A stretch of 63,970 bases of DNA, filler included, from Welwitschia mirabilis (Eukaryota): assembly GCA_051453625.1 (NCBI GenBank). It is 5 parts of one record of this genome, joined end to end, with 100 filler letters (N's around TTAATTAATTAA, not from the genome) between each part and the next. Parts side by side here need not be neighbours in the genome. Positions count along the whole stretch, not along the records: positions 1 to 24,718 come from JBOZIK010000001.1; 4 more parts are not named here. One strand, given 5' to 3'. Position numbers and translations under genes: made by a program. This document shows positions 7,860 through 58,975 of this stretch, one piece after another. The stretch's first letter is position 1; each line of letters opens with the position of its first letter. The notes beneath the pieces are model-generated. The model had not been told where the DNA came from. It searched no databases and worked only from the letters and a program-made list of their open reading frames with translations.

Positions 7860-7928
<69 letters not shown>

Positions 7929-8681
7929 NNNNNNNNNNNNNNNNNNNNNNNNNNNNNNNNNNNNNNNNNNNNNNNNNNNNNNNNNNNNNNNNNNNNNNNN
8001 NNNNNNNNNNNNNNNNNNNNNNNNNNNNNNNNNNNNNNNNNNNNNNNNNNNNNNNNNNNNNNNNNNNNNNNNNNNNNNNNNNNNNNNNNNNNNNNNNNNN
8101 NNNNNNNNNNNNNNNNNNNNNNNNNNNNNNNNNNNNNNNNNNNNNNNNNNNNNNNNNNNNNNNNNNNNNNNNNNNNNNNNNNNNNNNNNNNNNNNNNNNN
8201 NNNNNNNNNNNNNNNNNNNNNNNNNNNNNNNNNNNNNNNNNNNNNNNNNNNNNNNNNNNNNNNNNNNNNNNNNNNNNNNNNNNNNNNNNNNNNNNNNNNN
8301 NNNNNNNNNNNNNNNNNNNNNNNNNNNNNNNNNNNNNNNNNNNNNNNNNNNNNNNNNNNNNNNNNNNNNNNNNNNNNNNNNNNNNNNNNNNNNNNNNNNN
8401 NNNNNNNNNNNNNNNNNNNNNNNNNNNNNNNNNNNNNNNNNNNNNNNNNNNNNNNNNNNNNNNNNNNNNNNNNNNNNNNNNNNNNNNNNNNNNNNNNNNN
8501 NNNNNNNNNNNNNNNNNNNNNNNNNNNNNNNNNNNNNNNNNNNNNNNNNNNNNNNNNNNNNNNNNNNNNNNNNNNNNNNNNNNNNNNNNNNNNNNNNNNN
8601 NNNNNNNNNNNNNNNNNNNNNNNNNNNNNNNNNNNNNNNNNNNNNNNNNNNNNNNNNNNNNNNNNNNNNNNNNNNNNNNNN

Positions 8682-8735
<54 letters not shown>
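7860..8735. repeat. (GT)n microsatellite spanning an assembly gap
   Basis: Perfect GT runs on both sides of about 750 N. Confidence 0.98.
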
Positions 8736-8740
<5 letters not shown>

Positions 8741-10230: not shown

Positions 10231-11230
10231 GATTTAATTAAATACTTTGGATTAAAAAATGCAAAAACAACTAACACTCCCATGTTTACATCATGTAAAG
10301 TGAGTTTGAATGAAAATGACAAATTAGTAGACTAATGAATTAACAGAAGTATGATTGGTAGTCTATTATATTTGACTACAAGTAGACTGAATATCATGTT
10401 TAGTATTATAGTATGTGCAAGATATTAGTTTCAACCAAAAGAATCACATGTTTAAGCAGTAAAAAGAATAATTAGGTNNNNNNNNNNAAAAGGCACATGT
10501 GATTATAGCTTATGGTATCCCATCGAGACATCTTTTGAACTTGCATGCTTTAGTGATGTGGATTTGGCTGGATGTAAAGATGATAAAAAAAGCACAAGTG
10601 GGAATTGCTTTCTTCTAGGTTCATGTTTAGTTGGATGAGCAAACAAAAAATAAAATTCTATTTCTCTCTCTATTGCAGAAGTCGAATATATTATAACAGG
10701 TAGCTATTACATCATCTTTTATGGATTAAAGAAATTTTAAGAGATTTTGGTGTTAATTTTGAGCAAGTTCCTATTTTTTATGATAATACAAGTGCTATTA
10801 ATATATTAAAAAATCCAGTTCAGTACTCAAGAACGAAGCATATTAAGCTAAGACATCATTTCCTATGATACCAAGTTGAAAAAGGACATATATCTATGAA
10901 TTTTATAACTTTAGACCAGTAGTTGGCAGATATTTTTGCTAAACCCCTAAATTTTGATACTTTTCTTCATCTGAGAAATGAACTGGCATTTCTATCGCCA
11001 TCCTATAGCTGATTACAGGATGGTCAATCGGATCATTGATTTGGTCGACTGGATGAGGTTAGTCGACCAGTCTACTTAGATACCCTAGGTTCTGTAGCTA
11101 TCCCAGTAAAAGTACAAAATAGAAATTTGTTATCTAATTTTGTTTTATCGATAAACGTTTCTTCTCTCCTTTGTCATTGATATCAAAAGGGGGAGGATTA
11201 GTTATTTTTTTGTTGAATGTTTGTAATGTC
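10231..11230 (+). mobile_element. SIRE-like Ty1/copia RT C-terminus and RNase H remnant with 3' region
   Basis: RSMIGSLLYLTTSRLNIMFS..CARY*FQPKESHV*AVKRIIR; FSDVDLAGCKDDKKSTSG; DNTSAINILKNPVQYSRTKHIKLRHHFL; LADIFAKPL; stop ~11008; PPT-like tatcaaaagggggagga at ~11181-11197. Confidence 0.93.
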
Positions 11231-16676: not shown

Positions 16677-18081
16677 AATTTTAAATGTGGCATATTTTAT
16701 TTTAAATATGTTCCTACATTTTTAGGTCTCAAATTTTACAAACAAGTTCTATCATGTCTTTGATAAGCAAATCTATGGTCTGTGTTTCATTACCTATTGC
16801 CACTATCACTTGATTATAGTGTTTGATTTAACAGGTCTCTATGATAGGCATATGTACATGAAAACAAAATTTTTACAAACAAAGGCGTGAAAGTAATTAG
16901 CTGAGAAGTATGATATGTAAACTTGAGAGATATTTAAATCTCTATGAAAATAGAGTATTGCACAGCATATTTTTAAGTAAAAGAAATAAAAAGATCATAT
17001 GTATTCTATTATAAAGAAGCTAGAATTTGATATAAATGCATGAAAGTAATAAGAGTATCAAGTGAAACATAATCTTGTAATAACTTCAAGAAAATTTTAA
17101 ACTTTTTAGTCTTAGAACGTCCTGTATCATTGGAATACTATTTCTCTTGATCTTTTCCTAAGCCACTAGACTTTAACATTGATGATCTTGATCACTTAGT
17201 TTTCATTCAATCAACATCCATATTAAAAGCTTAAATATATAGCATTTTTCTTTTAGAATATTATGTAAATCACAAAAAATTGAAGGACATTCTAAGTAAA
17301 CTACAAAGTGTTTATTTCAAACCAGAGAAAGAGAAGTGTTTGAGACTAATAATTAAATATTTTCTTAAAATGCTTGAAAATATAATTTAAAATGGTTGTG
17401 TCCTTAAGAAACTCAACTAATAATGTTGATAAAACACACATTAGATTATCAAGTATAATATTTATTTTAAATCTTAAAATATGGAAACATTTTCAACAAT
17501 CTTCTTTAGATGTCAAGGTTAGATGTTAAAAATATTAGATACTAAATGTTAGAAAATGAGAGAGACAATANNNNNNNNNNAAAGTAGATATGTTGTTGAA
17601 AATTTAGTATAAAGGTCGGGTTTGGAAGTTTGAAATTATCAAATTCTTTGATTTGATTTCAAGTTAATCTTTACTTAAATCTTTTCCATCTTTAGAGGGA
17701 TTTATCTTTTGGATTACTTTTCAATCAATCATTACCATGTGTATTATAGTTTGTTGGTTTTGAATGCAACTATAGTAAATTATGCACTTAAGAGATGGAA
17801 ATGGCATCATTCTAAAGTAACCCAAAAATAATAGAGTAGAAAAGAAAAATGGAAATGGAAATTGCATCTTTTTCTTTTCATACATTGTCCATGATAATAG
17901 CCATCTTACTACTGAAGATAATAATTATTGTGGAAATGAAGGTAAGTTTTTCTCTTAAATAGAATTTCCATTTTAATGTAAAATGATATTTTTCTATTTC
18001 TTAAAATGGTATGAAATGCAATAACCACATCATCATTTAATGTGATCAAGTGGCCATTAACTGATGGAAGAAGTAAAAGAT

Positions 18082-18510
18082 TATTAAAATGCAACACCAA
18101 CTCATGTAATAGATTTCTTTGAAGACTTCATTATCTGAGTTTAGCTCATATTTTGAATTGTTCAAGTTGTTATTTCCTATTATTTTCTAGTTGAGTCTAG
18201 TTAGTGAAGTTAGTGGGTCAGTTGCTAAAAAGAAGAATAATTGTTATTGATTTAGTGAAGTTAGGGGATCAGTTACTAAAAAGAAGAAGAAGTATTATGG
18301 TGTTAATGGAGTTAGTGGGTCAGTTACTAAAAATAAAAGGAACTATTATTGATTTTATTCCTTTATATGCCTATATAAGGTCCTCTAGTTACATTAAATG
18401 ATATGACTTCCTTTGTAGCATCTATTTTGTTTTTTATAAGATATCTTCTACAGAGTGCACTTTATCTTCTCAAATTTATTTTTATTCTTTTGCTCTCTAA
18501 TTTTTCATCA
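18082..18510 (+). repeat. 5' LTR of the copia element, with 3 copies of a ~50-bp internal repeat
   Basis: Starts tattaaaat (decayed TG), ends catca; aligns end to end with 20745-21173; TATA-like ctatataagg at ~18371. Confidence 0.92.
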
Positions 18511-18549
18511 TTTAGTGTTAGATCTAGGTGAATATTTTCTATTGATAAT

Positions 18550-19683
18550 ATGAGTGATCTTCAATTGATTAGTAAAACTAGAAAACTTAACAATCAAAAA
18601 TATAATTCATGGTCAACATGCATGAAATCTTACCTGAAAGGTTAAGACTTGTGGAAAGTTACCTATGAAAGCAAAGTTACACAACTAGAAGAGGATTCAT
18701 CTAGTACATTACCGAAATAGAAGACAAAAGTAGGTAAGGTGATGTTCATTTTAAATAATATGATTGAAGAAGAAGTACTAGAGCACATCTGGAGGGCCAA
18801 AACACCTAAAAAATCTTGGGATACATTATCTATGCTTTTCTCAATGAAGAATGCCGTGAATCTTTAACTTCTAGAGAGCATGATATTGTCAGTAGCACAA
18901 CTAACATGATAGTTTCTTAGTACTTTTACAAAGTAAATTTACTATGTTATGAAATTTTTGAGTTGGATTTAGAAGCTTTAATTCGAAATAATAAAATTAA
19001 GAGAATAATTATGTATGGTTTAAGACTTTAATATAGAAGCTTTATTGTTATCATACAAGGATGACAAGAGGAATCACTACTTATTAAGTTCAAAAATTTT
19101 CTTGCTAGTCAGAAAGCCTTAGCCATATAAATGGGAGGAATTTCAATAAATAATGAAGAGGAAGCATCTACATCAATGAAAGAAAATTAAATTTCAAGAA
19201 ACACATTGTTAGTGGATCCAAAAGAAATGAGGATAATATGAAAAATGATCAACACAAAGGAAGTGGCTATTCAGGGGAGCTTTAAAAAATCATGGTAATG
19301 ACAATAAATTTGAAGGAAATTGATATAATTATGGGAAGGATGGTCATATGATGAAAGATTTTCATAGCAAAAAGTTTCAAAAAAAAAAAATGCTAAAATT
19401 GGAGGAAGAATGATTATATGGGGAAAGATTATTAGTTGAATTATGCTACTACTTCAAAACACAAAGATATGTAGGATGCTAAGACACTCTTTGCTGCAAA
19501 GGAGGAGTTAGATATCATAGCAAAAATGTTTGAATAGATCAATTATGAAAAAGATTGGATCATCGACTCAGGATGCTTAAGTTATATGATAGGCATGAAA
19601 AAAAATATTCTATCAGTAGCACAATTTACATCTTTAGTTTATTTTTTTTCTATTTGTCTTGCAAGATGTAAAGGTATATTATG
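18550..19683 (+). pseudogene. Copia gag (UBN2-type), Zn knuckle and protease, disrupted
   Basis: MSDLQLISKTRKLNNQKYNSWSTCMKSYLKG*DLWKV; *YNYGKDGHMMKDF (decayed CCHC, ~19321); DWIIDSGCLSYMIG (~19553); KNILSVAQFTS...QDVKVY. Confidence 0.9.
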
Positions 19684-20107
19684 AATAGAGGATAAAGAGA
19701 GGTAAGAATCAGATGATAAAGGTGAAAATATGGATTTTGAGGAGGAGCAAGAAGAGGATGTGGACAATGATGATAGATCTAATGATGTGAGATCATTTGG
19801 CACATTGAAAGACCTCAAGGATAAAGAATTTAAGGATGAGGAAGATAATGATGAACTTGATGTGGAAGAAGAATATGGAGAAAAGTGTTAAGATGGTGTT
19901 TTCATAAATGATCATGGATCTACTACTCTAAATGCTACTACTCGAGGGGATATCTCACTACAAATGTTGTAGAAAATAGCGGGGAGGAGGATGAAGTTAA
20001 TGACAAATATGTAAATGAAGTAGAGGTTTAAAATCTAGATGTTGAAGATGAGGAGGAGAGCAATGAACTTGTATAAGAAGAAGAAGATGATGATGATGAT
20101 GATGATC

Positions 20108-20140
<33 letters not shown>

Positions 20141-20393
20141 CATCTAAGGACGATGATTAGGAAGGCCCTAAACATGCCACAACAATATCCCTAGCAAGCT
20201 TAATATCCAAGATGATGATGAAAACAATGATGAAGAGATTGGTGATGGGGATAAAAAGGAAGAGGGCATGGAGAATAATAAAGATGAAGGATAAGACAAG
20301 AAAGGAGATTATGAAATGGAGTATTTAGTGTAGCCTATTGAAAAGCCAAAAGAAGAAGATGGTGGAAGTGATTTCCTTCTTGTCAAAGGTGAA
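19684..20393 (+). pseudogene. ANP32: Captured host-gene segment resembling the acidic C-terminal tail of plant ANP32-related (acidic leucine-rich nuclear phosphoprotein) proteins
   Basis: EDKER*ESDD...DEEDNDELDVEEE...EVEV*NLDVEDEEE...poly-D...DDENNDEEIGD...DYEMEYLV*PIEKPKEEDGGSDF follows the motif order I recall for plant ANP32-related tails (ERPESDD...VEVHEIEDS...DGETG...YLVQPV...SD). Identity is from memory; low complexity limits certainty. Confidence 0.6.
20086..20139 (+). repeat. (GAT)n trinucleotide tract (poly-Asp) within the captured segment
   Basis: 18 units with one CAT interruption. Confidence 0.95.
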
Positions 20394-20735
20394 TAAGCAG
20401 AGTACCAAGTTGTAGCAAGTGTAGTTCAAGAGAGTACTTGGCTTATGTAATTGTTGAAGGACTTGCATTAGGTAATAGATTTTGTAGTTCATATGTATTA
20501 TGATAACTAGTCAGCAATACATTTGACAAAGAATCTAATTTTTCATGAAATAACTAAACATGTGAAGGTGCACTACCATTTTATGAGGGAAAAAGTTTTG
20601 GAAAAAGAGGTGGAGCTAAGGCTTATTCAAACAGAAGATCAAGATGCAAATTTATTCATAAAAGTCTTGACTAGTAATAAGTTTGAAAACTTTTGTCATT
20701 ATCTCAGCACAATGAAAAGAATGGAAGCTGGTGTT
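20394..20735 (+). pseudogene. Copia RNase H C-terminal part
   Basis: *AEYQVVASVVQESTWLM...YDN*SAIHLTKNLIFHEITKHVKVHYHFMREKVL...EDQDANLFIKVL. Confidence 0.92.
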
Positions 20736-20744
20736 AAGAGGGAG

Positions 20745-21173
20745 TCTTAAAATAAAACACCAACTCATATAATAGATTTCTTTGAAGACTTAGTTGTTTA
20801 AGTTTAGTTGATATTTTGAATTGTGCAAGTTTTTATTTCCTATTATTTTCTAGTTAAATCTAGTTAGTGGAGTTAGTGAATTAGTTGCTATAAAGGAGAA
20901 GAACTATTATTGAGTTAGTGGAGTTAGTGAATCAGTTACTCAAAAGAAGGAGAATTGTTATTGAGTTAATGGAGTTAGTGGATCAATTACTAAAAATAAG
21001 GAGAACTATTATTGAGTTTATTCCTTTGTATGCCTATACAAGGCTCTTTAGTTGCATCAAATAATATAACTTCCTTCACAGCACCTATTTTATTTTTTGT
21101 AAGATATCTTCTACAGAGTATACTTCATCTTCTCAAATTTATTTTTAGTCTTTTTCTCTATAATTTTTCATGA
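20745..21173 (+). repeat. 3' LTR of the copia element
   Basis: Directly follows the PPT; aligns with 18082-18510, mostly transition differences. Confidence 0.92.
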
Positions 21174-22861
21174 AATATGTCTATTAATAAGATGTTATCA
21201 TGATTTTACAAGAAAATGAAATAACAAAATCAAGTAAATCATAACAAGATATTATAAGTAGGACACAAATATGAAGATAAAGATTCATGCAATACATTCT
21301 TTATTCAAATAAATGAATTTTAAATATTTTAACATGCTTTTATTACTAATGGATTTTGACTTAATTTGACTTTTGAGTTTTATTTCTATTCTAAACTTAG
21401 CATGCATGACTATTAGTTTTAAATGCTTTTTCCATTTCTATAGTTGCATCTGCATTGGCATATATGACTATTACATTTAACTAGCTTTATCATTTCTATG
21501 ATTATAACTGATTAATGTGCATAATGAGTTTTCTTATTTTTATAACTATAAGTGAAATTTATAGTTATAATTCCTTTAATCATAATAAGTGATAATAATT
21601 TCTTATTATAAATACCCTATCATCCATTATAATTATGTGTGTTTTTCATTGTAACATTAGTCAATAGAGTAGTTTTTTTTTAGAGTTTTCTTAGTGGTTA
21701 TTTCATAGAAGAATATATTTNNNNNNNNNNTCATTTTGTCATTTCAATATTTATGTTTGTACCAAGTATATAACTCTTGAGACATTATTTTATTCAATCT
21801 CAGTGTATGTCCCCTCTTCATACATTTTGCAATAACTTTTCTATTGCAAAATTAAAAATATGAAGGTGGGTATTTCATCTGCAATTATAATTACAGCTTT
21901 AGTATGAAAAGGACTCAATTGCGTTCTCTTTCTCACCATAACAAAATCCACCTAATAGTCTAGAAATGTGGTTAAGGGCCTTTCAACTTTTTTGTATATG
22001 CAAATATAAATCTTAGCATCATCTACATATTTAGTAGCTATAACAAGTAAGGAAAATCATCCAAAGTTAGAGATGGATGAAGAAGAAATGAACAGTGGTT
22101 AAATAATTAAAATAAATACTATATATGATCTAGTCACATTAAAGCATTAAATGTGATCACATGAAAGATCAAAATGGTATTTCTAATAGAATCACCTTTT
22201 GTTTTGAATTCCTAAGAACTCTAAATCTTCATGAGAAAATGAAAGCTCTCTTAAGAAATTGCTAAATTTACTTAACATAAATGAAATGCTTCTATGCTCT
22301 ATGAGCCCATTTACAAGTAGTGATAGTATTACTTTTTCTTTTCAAATCAAAAAAAATGAAAATAAAGATTCTTACAATCCCTATTTTGTGATCTCTATGC
22401 ATAGATAAGGACTATGAGTTAAAGTTCTTTTTAGAGAATGTTTTTTACCTTTGCTTGAACTATTGCAATCTAATTTAAAGCACGATCAGTCTGCTGTTGC
22501 TAAGGCTATATTGTTTGAGGCTAGAATATAAGATGGTGTAATTAATTGATATTATTTTTACTAAATAATTACATAATATGTTTACATAAACTTGGGGCTT
22601 TTGGCATGCAACTACTAAAGTGAGAAGTGTTGATGTCCTTACTGGAGTTTCTTGGACTTTTGAACTAGTGCTTTTTCTAAGAATCTCTCTCATTTTCTCT
22701 TTTGATACTTCTACTATTACATTCATATTTTTACTTTAATTTCTCAAAATATTCATTAGACTATTAATATGAGCACAAATTTGACAAAAAATGCCCTACT
22801 GGAATTAGGAGAAATACCCATATCTTATTTAGAAGACTTCAGGAGTACAAGCAACACATCT

Positions 22862-27800: not shown

Positions 27801-30800
27801 CTCATTATTATTATTATGATTAAATGTGAAACATCCTTTTTATATTATTAAAGCACCTAGTAGCTAGGCAAGCCTTTATAAGACATTATTTAACCCCTCT
27901 TTATCATTGGATCATGTTGTGTCCTTTTGTATTCTTAAGTTTTATCACCTTACTCACATTCTCTCACTTTAAATAGAGTCATTTTTTCCTTCAATTCTAG
28001 TTTTTTTTTTTTAGAAACAACCTTGACTTGAAATCTTAGAGCTTAGGAGTTCTAAGAGCTTTGGAAACTTGGAATATCTTCAAAAAGATTGAACATATAG
28101 GGTATGGTTCTATTCTTTTTGCTTCCTTGTTTATCCTTTTTATGCATTCCATTATTGAGATTCTCATGTTTAGATTCCTATAATATGAATGTTTAATTAT
28201 GTGAAACTTGATAAAAATAAAATCAGTTTTATTACATGTCTTATCCCCATTCACCTTTCATGCTTAATGTCTTGATGTTATTTATTCTTAATATGAGTTG
28301 AGAGATCATGATTAAACCTTATCCTATTTATCTTATCATTGTGCTATTTGAAATATATGATTATGAATTAATAGCTTATGGTTAAATCTTATCATATTTT
28401 TCTTATCATAATTATGTCTTAAACTTATGATTATGAATTTTTACAAATTGTCAAATGAGATAGTGGACTTCAATAGATCACTAAATGAGGTAGTAAAGTG
28501 AGAATTCCATAGATCACCAAATAAGAAAATCGGGATATTATATTTATCATAGATCGCTGAATGAAACAGTGGGCTTCATAGATCACCAAATGAAGCAGTG
28601 AAGTTAATGATATATGAGATTTTATATATACATATATATTTTTATAAGAATCACAGATTACCAAATGAGGAAGTGGCCTTTGCAAATCATCAAATGAGGT
28701 ACTGATGTTAAATATAGAAAATTATATGAGAATAATAGATCGTTAAATGTAGCAGTGGGCTTCACAAATCACCGAAGAGGCAGTGAAATAATTGAGCCAT
28801 TTTTAAATATATAATGATTATTCTTGTTCATAACCATAAGGTCAATTTTTGTGATTTATCATGTCCCTTAGATTCTTTACTTGTTTTTCATATCTTAACT
28901 CTCAAAAATCCTTATCTATCTTACCTAGTCATGCTAGAACCATATTTAGAGCTATGAGATTTTCATAGTTTTCATCCCATGATTTTGTGTAATAGGTGGA
29001 AAATCTAGACTATAATTGTTGTTGTGGGCAATGGAATATGAAGGATTAATGTCTAGTATTATTGGAAAATTTTGTTAAATGATCTTTTATTTCTTTACTA
29101 ATCCTGAAGTATTTGTTATAATATGTATGAGATTTGAGAACATGATATACTTTTCTAGAATAATGTTTTCTTGAATGATTTGAAGAATTAAACTCCATTT
29201 TATTATGTGTGTGCTTTATAGTCTATGAATTTTTATCAGTTGAGATGTCAAACATTGTATTATGGAAAATACTATTGAAATATAAAAATTTAATTGTTCT
29301 TTGTGCTTGTCTTGATGATTTGTATTGAGAAGCTTGAAATCTTTAGTTATATTAATTACCTCAAAATTTTATTAAATGTCAACTATGAATATATTTTTTT
29401 GAATTATTTTCCATAAATTTTGAAGTTGATAATATATTTTATGCACCACCTACAATCCTTTTTGAAAAGTATTAGCCTAATCATGAGTATTAATTTGGAA
29501 ATTATGCCTTTGATTATAGAGTTGATGACCATTTATTAATCATTGATTTATAATTACATTACAACTAGTACATTGAAGTTACATAAAGAAAAAATATAAT
29601 GTAATTATTTAAGTAGAAAGGGTTATATTAAAATCATTTAGTACCATAGAACAATAATAATTAGCATTTATTTCTATACCTCAGTTTGAAAATTTTCATG
29701 AAATTTTTAGTTAAAATATGAGTATAGGATGTTATGCCTTAAAATAAATATTAAAATTCATTTACCTCTACCTTCTGGAATATTTAAATCTATCATAATT
29801 AATTTTAGGTAGTACATGTATAATTATTTAATTATTATAAGATTTAGGAAAGGGACCAACCATAAAAAAGTTATTAATGAAATTGAAAGGTCTAGCACAT
29901 GGTGTGACTTGAACCTCTAACCAATCAAGTTACTAATATAATATATTACCACTACACTATCCATTCTTACTGGTAATGGACTATCTTACTATTATTAATT
30001 GTCCAGTGAACATAGCATTTGAATTATTCTATAAAGTAACTCCATCATTCTCTTTTAGCTAAACTTGTGAATACCCTATGCAAGGCGAGGGAGAAATAGA
30101 TGTAGTCAAAGAAAAATAAAACCTTTAATACTAGGTAGTAATAAAAGAGGTACAGTAATTAATAGAGCATTATCTAATTTTTTAGAACTACTCCCCTAAA
30201 GAAGACGCATCTAATATGCTTCAAATGTAGGCTTTATGCTTTAAACTTTAATTATTATATGCATTACTTTGGAGAGGAGTTTAGGTGATTGAATTAAGTG
30301 TTTTAAATTTTATTTCAACTCCACAAAATAATCATTTACTTGTCTTTCCTCTGTTGTATCAATATAAGGTAAAACTCTATCTCATATCATGTCTTGTTTG
30401 CACATCTTCCTTTCTTTCTATTGCAGTGCATATCTTCCCTCCCATGCGTCTCTCCTCCTATGTAGCGAGACTCTCTCTTTGTCATGCCTTTCCAGGATAT
30501 TCTTTCTTATTTCACAAATCTCTCTTACCCTGTGTTCTTTTTTTTTCTATGTGTTGTAGGTCCACCCTTTCCTCCATCTTTAATGCCTTGCATTCATAAA
30601 TTACTTGGGTGATATTTGGCTTGAGTATTCTACTTTCCCACTTCTATGCTATCCTCTGTCCTCTTGCATGTTGCTATGTTTTGTGTGCTATTCATTTTTT
30701 CAATTTGTACCATCTCATGTGTGCCATTGATTTTAGCTTGGATGTTTTCCCTTCATAAACTATTTAATCTTTCATCATCACATCAACTTGCTGCTCATGC

Positions 30801-31989: not shown

Positions 31990-32955
31990 ACTTTTCAAAG
32001 AGTATATAATCAAAATACAATGCATACCTTTAGGCTGGAATTTACCCAAATTCTTATCATCCGAAATAATACATCTACTACCAAAGATACTAAAATACTT
32101 TACCAGTGGCTTCTTACCATTCCATAGTTTATAAGAGATGCTTCAAGTACCAGCCCTTGGAAAGATCCTATTAGATATTTANNNNNNNNNNNNNNNNNNN
32201 NNNNNNNNNNNNNNNNNNNNNNNNNNNNNNNNNNNNNNNNNNNNNNNNNNNNNNNNNNNNNNNNNNNNNNNNNNNNNNNNNNNNNNNNNNNNNNNNNNNN
32301 NNNNNNNNNNNNNNNNNNNNNNNNNAAATATTCCATAGTTATTGCAAAAATTAATAAAATTTTCATTTTCAAACTCACCTCCACTATCAAACCTAATTTT
32401 TTTAATGGTGAGGCCCTTTCCATTTTGAATTTTTTTGCAAAGATTATAAAACTTATCAAAAGTATTAGATTTAGAATGCAAAAACTTAACCCAAGTATAA
32501 TGAGTAAAGTCATCAACCACCACCATAAAATATCTCTTACCACATAGACTTTAAACTTTTATAGACCCTACTAAATTTAATTGCAACATATCTAGAGGCT
32601 CATATAAAGATATCTCAGGCTTGGATTTAAAAGAAGTTTTCATGATTTTTTCTANNNNNNNNNNNNNNNNNNNNNNNNNNNNNNNNNNNNNNNNNNNNNN
32701 NNNNNNNNNNNNNNNNNNNNNNNNNNNNNNNNNNNNNNNNNNNNNNNNNNNNNNGTCATTAATAACCACCATAAAATATCTCTTACCACTTAAACTTTGA
32801 ACTTTTTGTAGGTCCTACTAAGTCTAGATGCAACATATCTAGAGGCCTTTTTGAGGATATCTTAAGCTTAGGTTTAAAAAAGGATTTCATGATTTTTTCT
32901 ACTTGACAATTTTCACATAAGATAGAATTGGAAAAGATAATCTTGGGTAACCAAC
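31990..32955 (-). mobile_element. SIRE-like Ty1/copia integrase remnant
   Basis: LCENCQVEKIMK.FKPK...PLDMLHLDLVGP; VVVDDFTHYTWVKFLHSKS...IQNGKGLTIKKIRFDSGGEFENENFINFCNNYGI; YFSIFGSRC...KNLGKF. Cut at 32956 by a Tekay LTR. Confidence 0.92.
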
Positions 32956-57425: not shown

Positions 57426-58975
57426 TAAATATATTACAATAGGTAGTTTTTGCACTTATCTTTTATGGAGAAAAGAAATGATAAAGAATTATGGTATTAA
57501 TTTTAAACAAGTCCGTATATTCTATGACAATACTAGTGCTATCAACATATTAAAAGATCCTATTTATCACTTAAGAATTAAGCATATTAAGGTAAGACAT
57601 TATTTTCTATGAGACCAATTCAAAAAAGAATAGATCTCTATGAATTTTATAAATATAGACCAACAATTGATAGATATTTTTACTAAACCCCTTATATTGT
57701 AATAATTTTCTTCATCTTATAAATAAACTAATGGTTATTTCATCGTCCTATGGTTGATTGTAGGGTGATTAATAGGATCCTCGATTTGATTGACTAGATG
57801 TAATCAATTAATCAAACTAAAGATTTGGTTACTTGAATCCTTTTAGTTCTTTAGGTATTTTAGCAAATGCTAATAATGCAAAACAGAAGTTTTTCATTTG
57901 TAGTCTTTTCTTTCATCCTTTTATTCTTTTTATATATTTATGTTTTACTTATAAAAATTTTATTCTCTCCTCTATCCTTAATATCAAAAGGGGGAGAATT
58001 GATTTTTGCTATAGTATGCTCTTGATGAGTACTTTTATTTTATAATGTTTGCATATGTTTAATAGAATCCACTTGCACTTCATTCTTATGCTCTAAAGAG
58101 TCTTTAATTGATATATTAGATATTTTTGTGCTTATGCAAATCATATGTACTTAACTTAAAATTTTAAAGACTCAAATAGTTATTTCATAAATTTAAATAT
58201 TGATGTCCAATTTTGGAAATGAATTTTAAAATGTGACAACTAATCAAATTGTTAAATTGTTTATATGATCACATTATGCTTTTTCTAAAATATGTGCTTT
58301 TAAAACTTTAATTATGCATATTAAATTTATTTTATATTAAGTACAAAATTTGATTATTTAAAATGTGTTAACTTGATTTCAAAAGATGTAATATTTTGTA
58401 ATAGAAATTTTGTAAGTGGGAGCTTTTCTAAGTCCTAAATATTTTCACAACTAAGTATTATTTGCCATTAATGTAAAAGGGGGAGATTATTAGATTATGT
58501 TTTACCAATTGATGTCATACTAATGTATTCTGTATAGCAAATTTTTTGTATCTTCTATCACTTATAGGTCTAATATGAAATCAAAACCATCAATTTCTAA
58601 GAACTAAAAACTTGTCAAGTTCATTTACTCTTTTGAGGAATCAATTGGATTTTTAAGGGGTTGATTGCACCTGAAGCAGATACCTAGGAAATGAACAAAA
58701 TTTAGAGGGATCAACTAGATTTTCGATGGGGTTGATAAAACCAATAACCTTGAGAATCAGTATCCCTAAACCAAATGGCAAAGGATCAATTAGATATTTA
58801 TGGTTTTAACTAGATTTGAGGACCTGATAAATAGTATCCCTGAACTAAATGAAAAGGGGTCAACTATACCTATTATGTGGTTAACTAGATTTGTTAACCA
58901 AGGAATAGTACTTCTAAACTAATTGCTAAGGGGTCAACCAAACCTATATTGGAGTCAACTTAACCTACGCACTAC
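57426..58975 (+). mobile_element. SIRE-like copia RNase H end, multiple PPTs and start of 3' LTR
   Basis: YDNTSAINILKDPIYHLRIKHIKVRHYFL...DQQLIDIFTKP (same family as 10680-11000); PPT-like aaaagggggaga at ~57986 and 58475 plus aagtgggag at ~58414; LTR from 58488 with tandem ggatcaactag/gggtcaac motifs at 58640-58960. Confidence 0.88.

Follow-up and report, generated by a model that had tools for sequence, protein, structure and literature searches.

Bs1 of maize is the best comparison for gene capture by a small LTR retrotransposon. The portion of the literature account devoted to it describes three transduced segments, derived from a membrane H+-ATPase, a xylan endohydrolase and a beta-1,3-glucanase, and a chimeric reading frame (PMC13317346). 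Captures have also been counted genome-wide, with 672 captured genes given for rice and 1,343 for sorghum LTR-retrotransposons in the summary parts of that work, where chromatin-organisation terms are over-represented among the sorghum genes (PMC3726574). In retroviral oncogene transduction, Veju and BARE-2, switching of reverse transcriptase (RT) between co-packaged RNAs produces a chimeric element; the sequence acquired by Veju and BARE-2 was of unknown or transposon origin, unlike the host coding fragment considered here (PMC13317346). A full-text literature search for ANP32 captured by a retrotransposon returned no article on the subject by title or abstract.

The element analysed here is a Bs1-like example of this already known kind of gene capture. 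It lies in Welwitschia mirabilis (assembly GCA_051453625.1) on record JBOZIK010000001.1, which supplies positions 1-24,718 of the window. The window is the whole stretch of DNA that was analysed, 63,970 nt with filler included, in which five parts of one record are joined by 100-N fillers. A Ty1/copia deletion derivative of 3.1 kb occupies positions 18082-21173 (Table 1). The initial annotation had described a complete copia element with both LTRs and its core exchanged for an ANP32-like segment. This is borne out by anatomy and homology, which support a structurally complete copia element in which an ANP32-like host gene segment replaces the integrase-RT core.

Judged by the described parts of that system, the locus resembles Bs1 in being a small LTR element with host coding sequence inside it in place of most of pol (PMC13317346). 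As expected of a Bs1-type capture, it also has sense host coding sequence within the element and an identifiable expressed parent gene. It differs in that a single captured segment is present, derived from a histone-chaperone gene of the ANP32 family, and in that the copy is fully decayed. The contigs suggest a larger family with copies in two organisms. In one RNA run, of which about a quarter was sampled, no expression of the chimera was seen. The rice and sorghum captures likewise place parts of host genes inside full-length elements, flanked by the LTRs, but they come from bulk catalogues rather than a single case (PMC3726574).

Table 1. Features of the chimeric copia element, in window positions
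Feature	Position	Strand	Basis
5' copy of TSD (AAGAT)	18077..18081	+	read from sequence; 4/5 vs AATAT
5' LTR, 429 nt	18082..18510	+	gap-free alignment to 3' LTR
Decayed PBS, 2 nt past 5' LTR	18513..18524	+	8/12 to initiator-tRNA-Met PBS motif; expected place; weak
Decayed gag, many stops and frame changes	18550..19400	+	Pfam on 18550-18874; remainder by eye
Protease remnant, frame +2	19457..19624	+	tblastn, copia-type protein P0009 residues 21-77
63 nt containing 5' junction	19625..19687	+	two candidate frames searched, no Pfam match
Captured ANP32-family acidic-tail fragment	19688..20394	+ (sense)	tblastn P0007, HMMER, RNA reads
RNase H C-terminal part and end of pol, frame +3	20397..20744	+	tblastn P0008, P0009
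PPT AAGAGGGAG, abutting 3' LTR	20736..20744	+	read from sequence
3' LTR, 429 nt	20745..21173	+	gap-free alignment to 5' LTR
3' copy of TSD (AATAT)	21174..21178	+	read from sequence

The two LTRs are identical at 367 of 429 positions (85.5%) and differ by 43 transitions and 19 transversions. The resulting K2P of 0.164 is the reason for calling the copy old. Each LTR contains a 51-nt unit in three tandem copies, at 18201-18355 in the 5' LTR and 20862-21018 in the 3' LTR. The outer edges were placed with family contigs, whose counts and depths, here and below, are not equivalent to copy numbers. Contigs with flanks unlike the window and unlike each other start at 18084 (31 in X1, 25 in X5) or at 18082 (a further 8 in X5), and on the right X1 depth drops from ~1050 to ~14 past 21168. 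The choice of 18082-18510 follows the contig breaks at 18082-18084 and leaves the PPT directly next to the LTR. Alternative TG...CA edges at 18090-18507 were dropped for these two reasons. The LTRs and PPT reported in the initial annotation are retained, but its PBS is a weak match to the initiator-tRNA-Met motif. Its near-perfect TSD is also weak taken alone, with a chance match estimated at ~7% in DNA this AT-rich.

The coding capacity is reduced to gag, a remnant of protease and ~115 codons at the end of RNase H. The element is without INT and RT, and RNase H keeps its C-terminal part only. Because the protease remnant and RNase H tail match proteins bearing RVT_2, Pol_BBD and SH3_retrovirus, these remains sit on the copia side. 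In gag, Pfam returned DUF4219 on 18550-18874 (E 9.3e-8, 32.1 bits, cut-off 27) and, under the same cut-off value, Retrotran_gag_2 (E 6.1e-6, 26.2 bits). The second half of gag and the zinc-knuckle region gave no Pfam match; later gag and the remains of a zinc knuckle at about 19330-19380 were identified by visual inspection alone. The protease remnant is identical to P0009 at 24/57 residues (tblastn, E 4e-8) and has D-S-G at 19565-19573, while Pfam Pol_BBD reached only E 0.05 on this region. A protease reading of QDVKVY (~19683) had been proposed previously; it lies in a different frame from the protease homology and has no Pfam match. The RNase H tail (20397-20738) aligns with residues 293-406 of P0008, which carries RVT_2, at 65/114 identical (57%, E 1e-33), and with P0009 at 65/116 (tblastn). 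Rfam had no match on 17581-21720, and self-BLAST within the window found no second copy of any internal part, only a 47-nt, 81% match at 27973-28018.

Between protease and RNase H lies an insert of ~700 nt (19688-~20394) that is colinear with ANP32 in three shifted frames. The protein used for comparison, P0007, is a transcript-derived ANP32-family protein of 349 aa. Pfam assigns it LRR_9 and other LRR families. Its top 8 solved-structure matches comprise 7 ANP32A/ANP32B chains and one 'LRRcap domain-containing protein', with ANP32B and ANP32A the best solved relatives (E 1e-30 to 4e-24). In tblastn, P0007 residues 156-343 are colinear with 19688-20300 in three pieces: residues 156-242 at 19688-19948 (58/87 identical, 116 bits, frame +2), 243-332 at 19948-20166 (62 bits), and 307-343 at 20190-20300 (52 bits, frame +3). 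All off-diagonal acidic matches score <=30.4 bits. Residues 1-155, the LRR domain, match nothing in the window above 21 bits.

HMMER with the first piece found P0007 as the sole match among 117 candidates (E 5e-20, 65% identity). Composition-corrected BLASTP against P0007 gave E 36 for piece 2 and E 0.64 for piece 3, neither significant alone; both are assigned to ANP32 because they are colinear with the strongly matching piece 1. The stretch 20301-20394 lies beyond the P0007 match, since P0007 ends there, and a protein search with the last insert piece found 0 of 29 candidates at E <= 10. A full-library HMMER search with 19694-19990 yielded three matches at E <= 0.001, to proteins of 1835-4876 aa, each matched in many stretches; these were judged to be acidic low complexity and uninformative. 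The ANP32-like host gene proposed initially is supported by the match to P0007 and by mRNA of the same organism. The insert had been started at 19684; the insert itself stands, but detected ANP32 homology begins at 19688.

An LRR domain with an LRR-cap defines the ANP32 family, whose members are histone chaperones. Colinearity of the insert is confined to the acidic tail, the LRR domain being absent from the window. As only the tail was captured, homology identifies the insert as derived from an ANP32 gene and not itself a family member.

The parent is an expressed host gene in the same organism. Oligo-dT run X16, of which about a quarter was sampled, placed 603 reads on the element. Nearly all of the 587 that are <90% identical fall on 19651-20064, and this low identity to the insert is why the insert-region reads are attributed to the parent. 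Reads of this organism cover 19694-19983 of the insert. An unmatched end upstream of 19694 is carried by 133 reads, with an agreement of 1.0. Hand translation gives KYLDKIDSEG, which corresponds to P0007 residues 148-157 and overlaps the tblastn match (from 156) by two residues. RNA matching the insert thus runs upstream into KYLDKIDSEG, as in the ANP32 protein, which identifies the expressed gene as the parent.

The two junctions differ in how far they can be read. At the 5' junction, Pfam found no match in either frame of 19623-19700. This junction had been called one base off frame, which is not upheld as written. Frame +2 holds both the protease homology and the start of the ANP32 match. 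Single-base length changes among copies at 19642-19684 make the frame relation unreadable from the present copy. The 3' junction was correctly described as in frame, the last ANP32 piece and RNase H both being in frame +3. It is spanned by an X6 contig (20193-20460, 5 differences). Diverged relatives (X1 records 6 and 7, X5 record 13) match the window only from 20395-20422 onward, and their contigs extend 132-532 nt farther upstream. Two X6 contigs depart from the window after 20379 into other sequence, so the 3' end of the insert may vary from copy to copy, or remodelling may have followed the capture.

Contigs that are 81-82% identical bridge the 5' junction at 19474-19756 in X1 and at 19474-19756 and 19519-19783 in X5. 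In other contigs the protease region is linked to the insert across internal skips, from 19589 to 20015, 19637 to 19729 and 19543 to 19809. Position 19747 is covered by 14 X1 contigs, and X1 depth is 58-119 on the first part of the insert vs 1.5-14 in its flanks. These diverged contigs support the non-autonomous family that had been conjectured. As ~81% identical contigs from two organisms bridge the protease-to-ANP32 junction, the chimera appears to have multiplied as such a family, with copies judged by the shared junction and not by insertion site.

The locus is probably a dead copy of a non-autonomous copia family whose founder captured an ANP32 tail at the RNA level. In this founder, everything between the end of protease and mid-RNase H, namely integrase, RT and the first part of RNase H, would have been replaced by ~0.7 kb. 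The replacement would be sense acidic-tail coding sequence of a host ANP32-family gene, starting just past the LRR-cap. We infer that RT switched template twice, using element RNA and an ANP32 mRNA packaged with it, a mechanism like that of retroviral oncogene transduction, Veju and BARE-2. The chimera would have kept the cis parts it needed (LTRs, PBS, PPT and the gag-proximal region) and may then have been copied in trans by the proteins of a postulated autonomous copia relative. The present copy inserted long ago.

Acquisition at the DNA level, in which a copia element already integrated received a fragment or processed pseudogene of ANP32 and the family arose later, is an unlikely origin for the chimera. 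Double-strand-break repair, illegitimate recombination, and nested insertion followed by deletions were considered as routes. The 63 nt at the 5' junction and ~15 nt at the 3' junction could be filler from such an event, and copies vary near both junctions. However, the fragment is in sense orientation and stands in place of the pol core, not in addition to it. Its two ends lie inside coding sequence, with no poly(A), duplication of its own or inverted ends, and over ~190 codons it runs colinearly with both RNA reads and a transcript-derived protein. The initial annotation had pointed to a TSD or TIRs of the insert's own as signs of an independent insertion; these were looked for at the insert ends and none were found. 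A nested DNA-transposon reading was rejected, there being no terminal inverted repeats or flanking direct repeats at the insert ends. Intron loss is the key mark of RNA-level capture, and the element/parent pair together with the genome could test capture by RNA against capture by DNA.

Two further readings are very improbable. The draft could have wrongly joined a copia fragment to ANP32-like sequence, as the window is gapped, with 31 N runs and 3164 N in total. Yet the entire element lies in one gap-free stretch (17581-21720), and both junctions are crossed by independent contigs, from other samples as well as from a second organism. It is just as improbable that the locus has, or had until recently, a functional host gene made of the gag-PR-ANP32 tail-RNase H frame. 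Both junctions are compatible with an in-frame fusion, but there are 11 stop codons in the first 194 gag codons, and 7 stops and two frameshifts in the insert. At least 95% identity was reached by 7 of the 603 X16 reads, and in the same quarter of that run RNA depth outside the first part of the insert is found almost only in LTR bins, the internal region being almost without it. The present copy is old and inactive and codes for nothing now.

That the acidic stretch is native or chance low complexity with no host gene behind it deserves practically no credence: although Pfam found nothing below E 0.03 in the three insert pieces, two of the three fail composition-corrected BLASTP and a (GAT)18 run has expanded at 20086-20140, the protein matched by HMMER has an LRR domain of ANP32 type, the non-acidic blocks DVDNDDRSN and HGS..LNA..RG are common to insert and P0007, and host mRNA reads continue from the insert into LRR-cap coding sequence.

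Knowledge of plant gene capture is unchanged by this element. It provides a clean, well-bounded case of an LTR retrotransposon in which a host coding fragment took the place of the enzymatic core, and which would then have spread by parasitising autonomous relatives. It is improbable that the ANP32 tail helped the family as an in-frame link from protease to RNase H. A histone-binding, nucleic-acid-mimicking tail could conceivably aid packaging or chromatin engagement at integration, or interfere with the host ANP32 pathway or silencing. If true, a helpful tail would explain the multiplication of a pol-less chimera in at least two related organisms.

The element and its parent also record the direction of decay. 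RNA and window differ at 109 positions, of which 72 have A/T in the window and G/C in the RNA (A>G 40, T>C 32) and 11 the opposite. Decay in the element copy has therefore been mostly G>A and C>T. Because the parent is still expressed and decay is one-directional, the pair could be used to measure methylation-driven decay. Both LTRs contain 0 CpG, and CpG in the insert is depleted, with 3 observed vs 16.6 expected.

The element at 18082–21173 (+) is a cis-complete, pol-less Ty1/copia derivative in which part of an expressed host ANP32 gene sits in sense orientation. Its gag region, 18550–19131, translated with X at stops, matches DUF4219 (Pfam, E 9.3e-8) and, slightly below the curated cut-off, Retrotran_gag_2 (E 6.1e-6). 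The later part of gag and a zinc-knuckle remnant were recognised by eye only, and Pfam returned no match there. The protease remnant was placed by alignment to P0009, a plant copia-type protein with Pol_BBD, SH3_retrovirus, and RVT_2 domains. In the RNase H tail, homology starts precisely with the motif's A-E-Y. The stretch between these two remnants holds neither integrase nor reverse transcriptase. The window copy is dead, as stops occur in gag (11 in the first 194 codons), the insert (seven, with two frame changes), and the RNase H tail (four).

Features of the element and contigs bridging its 5' junction
Feature	Position	Strand or frame	Evidence
5' LTR	18082–18510	+	gap-free alignment to 3' LTR
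Protease remnant	19457–19624	frame +2	P0009 alignment; D-S-G at 19565–19573
P0007 residues 156–242	19688–19948	frame +2	tblastn, 58/87 identical, gap-free, 116 bits
P0007 residues 243–332	19948–20166	frame +1	tblastn, 62 bits
P0007 residues 307–343	20190–20300	frame +3	tblastn, 52 bits
RNase H tail	20397–20744	frame +3	P0008 and P0009 (copia-type proteins), 56–57% identity, E 1e-33 and 1e-31
3' LTR	20745–21173	+	gap-free alignment to 5' LTR
Junction-bridging contig, X1	19474–19756		54 differences in 283
Junction-bridging contigs, X5 (second organism)	19474–19756; 19519–19783		

The identity of the insert rests on P0007, a 349-residue protein and the only one found among 117 candidates when 19694–19990, translated with X at stops, was searched against a library of 5.8 billion proteins (E 5e-20, 65% identity). 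P0007 contains LRR_9, LRR_4, LRR_8, and LRR_1 domains. Among solved structures, the eight chains closest to it comprise seven of ANP32B/ANP32A and one named 'LRRcap domain-containing protein' (E 1.3e-30 to 4.5e-24), followed by other LRR proteins at E 4e-13 or weaker. tblastn of P0007 against the window, with neither low-complexity filtering nor composition correction applied, gave three colinear matches on the insert; off-diagonal acidic matches, an internal composition control, all scored ≤30.4 bits. The LRR domain (residues 1–155) had no match in the window above 21 bits. Under composition correction in BLASTP, the second and third insert pieces alone were non-significant against P0007 (E 36 and E 0.64), and the last piece had no match in the large protein library. 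A full-library HMMER search with the insert returned only three proteins, all very long and acidic. The insert also holds an expanded (GAT)18 run at 20086–20140. P0007 stops short of 20301–20394, leaving those positions without a verified counterpart.

Expression of the parent gene was observed in X16, an oligo-dT RNA run from the same organism, about a quarter of which was read and aligned at 80% likeness. This placed 603 reads on the stretch, nearly all at 19651–20064, and 587 of them were <90% alike. Before 19694, 133 reads have a loose end (agreement 1.0) that translates by hand as KYLDKIDSEG, P0007 residues 148–157, overlapping the tblastn match (start 156) by two residues. Hence this organism transcribes an ANP32 gene whose mRNA corresponds to the insert and reaches further upstream, into LRR-cap coding sequence absent from the element, so that the captured piece starts at ~19688–19694. 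Internal loose ends of the reads are GC-rich versions of the window sequence. At 72 of the 109 RNA–window differences the window has A/T and the RNA G/C, with the reverse at 11, and CpG is depleted in the insert (3 seen vs. 16.6 expected) and absent from both LTRs. The element copy thus bears the signature of cytosine-methylation decay and is therefore the derived sequence.

At the 3' junction, RNase H continues in the frame of the last ANP32 piece, as the initial annotation had stated, with ~15 nt (20380–20394) unassigned. At the 5' junction, the protease homology and first ANP32 piece also share a frame, separated by 63 unassigned nt; the QDVKVY peptide previously read here lies in another frame and has no Pfam match. 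As copies in contigs have one-base length differences at 19642, 19655, 19659, and 19684, the original 5' frame relation is not readable from the window copy alone. Neither inverted ends nor an own flanking duplication was found at the insert ends.

The chimera is a family of several diverged copies rather than a single accident. Contigs 81–82% identical to the window span the protease-to-ANP32 junction, reaching far more than 31 nt to either side, and in others the protease region is linked to the insert across internal skips (19589>20015, 19637>19729, 19543>19809). Position 19747 is covered by 14 X1 contigs; X1 depth, which is not copy number, is 58–119 over the first part of the insert vs. 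1.5–14 in the flanks. The 3' junction is covered by a contig of X6, a further sample, which has 5 differences over 20193–20460. In several diverged relatives, similarity to the window starts only at 20395–20422, although their contigs reach 132–532 nt further upstream; ahead of the RNase H tail these relatives have something else, presumably ordinary pol. Two X6 contigs track the insert to 20379 and then enter AT-rich sequence unlike the window (median 146 nt), perhaps because they come from a copy whose 3' junction differs or from another fragment derived from ANP32.

The LTRs are direct repeats of 429 nt with 367 identical positions, 43 transitions, and 19 transversions (K2P 0.164). At a commonly used plant substitution rate, from which the host's own may differ, this means an insertion several million years old. 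The edges proposed initially are supported on the left by Logan contigs with mutually unlike left flanks that begin matching at 18084 or 18082 (31 in X1; 25 and 8 in X5; two organisms), and on the right by a ~75-fold fall in X1 depth beyond 21168. The purine run AAGAGGGAG directly adjoins the 3' LTR. Weak evidence when taken alone comes from the 5-nt flanks (AAGAT vs. AATAT) and from a 12-mer 2 nt past the 5' LTR, matching the initiator-tRNA-Met primer-binding motif at 8/12. Each LTR contains ~3 repeats of a 51-nt unit (18201–18355; 20862–21018; 80–85% matches). Family contigs join these units differently (18264>20907, 18298>18358, and others), so repeat number probably varies between copies.

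This structure probably arose when host ANP32 RNA was co-packaged with element RNA and two template switches during reverse transcription captured the fragment; an autonomous relative would then have trans-mobilised the chimera. Acquisition of the fragment at the DNA level is the chief alternative to this RNA-level route. That LTR retrotransposons of plants take up host genes is established; maize Bs1 is the classic example, and one of the routes named is abnormal template switching (PMC13317346). Genome-wide surveys put the number of captured genes at 672 for rice and 1,343 for sorghum, where chromatin-organisation terms are over-represented (PMC3726574). The ANP32 capture is a further case. 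A full-text literature search for ANP32 capture by a retrotransposon returned nothing on the subject by title or abstract; supplementary gene lists, possibly with ANP32 captures, lay outside it.

The window is draft sequence, gapped and very rich in AT (GC 0.18–0.31 per 2 kb, ~0.26 overall) with 31 N runs totalling 3164 N, in which the element lies entirely within one gap-free stretch, 17581–21720. Self-comparison of the window found no second copy. Transposon remnants excepted, there are no open frames of at least 110 aa outside N-filled or low-complexity stretches, and the region has the look of repeat DNA in an advanced state of decay. At 10231–10994 (+), broken by a 10-N gap (10478–10487), lie the decayed RT end and RNase H of another copia family, 30–38% identical to P0008–P0010 (copia-type proteins) over ~150 and ~90 aa; Pfam found no match in 10231–10477. 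A short copia RNase H-tail fragment at 57427–57693 (+) shares 38% identity over 61 aa with P0008 and P0009, also with no Pfam match. An open 75-aa stretch at 32326–32550 (−) matches the integrase core domain rve (E 4.5e-7, 30.5 bits, cut-off 32.6) and is probably a piece of yet another LTR element, since it adjoins a 144-N gap. The 753-N gap at 7929–8681 is probably an unresolved simple repeat, as a (TG/CA)n microsatellite flanks it on both sides (within 7860–8740).
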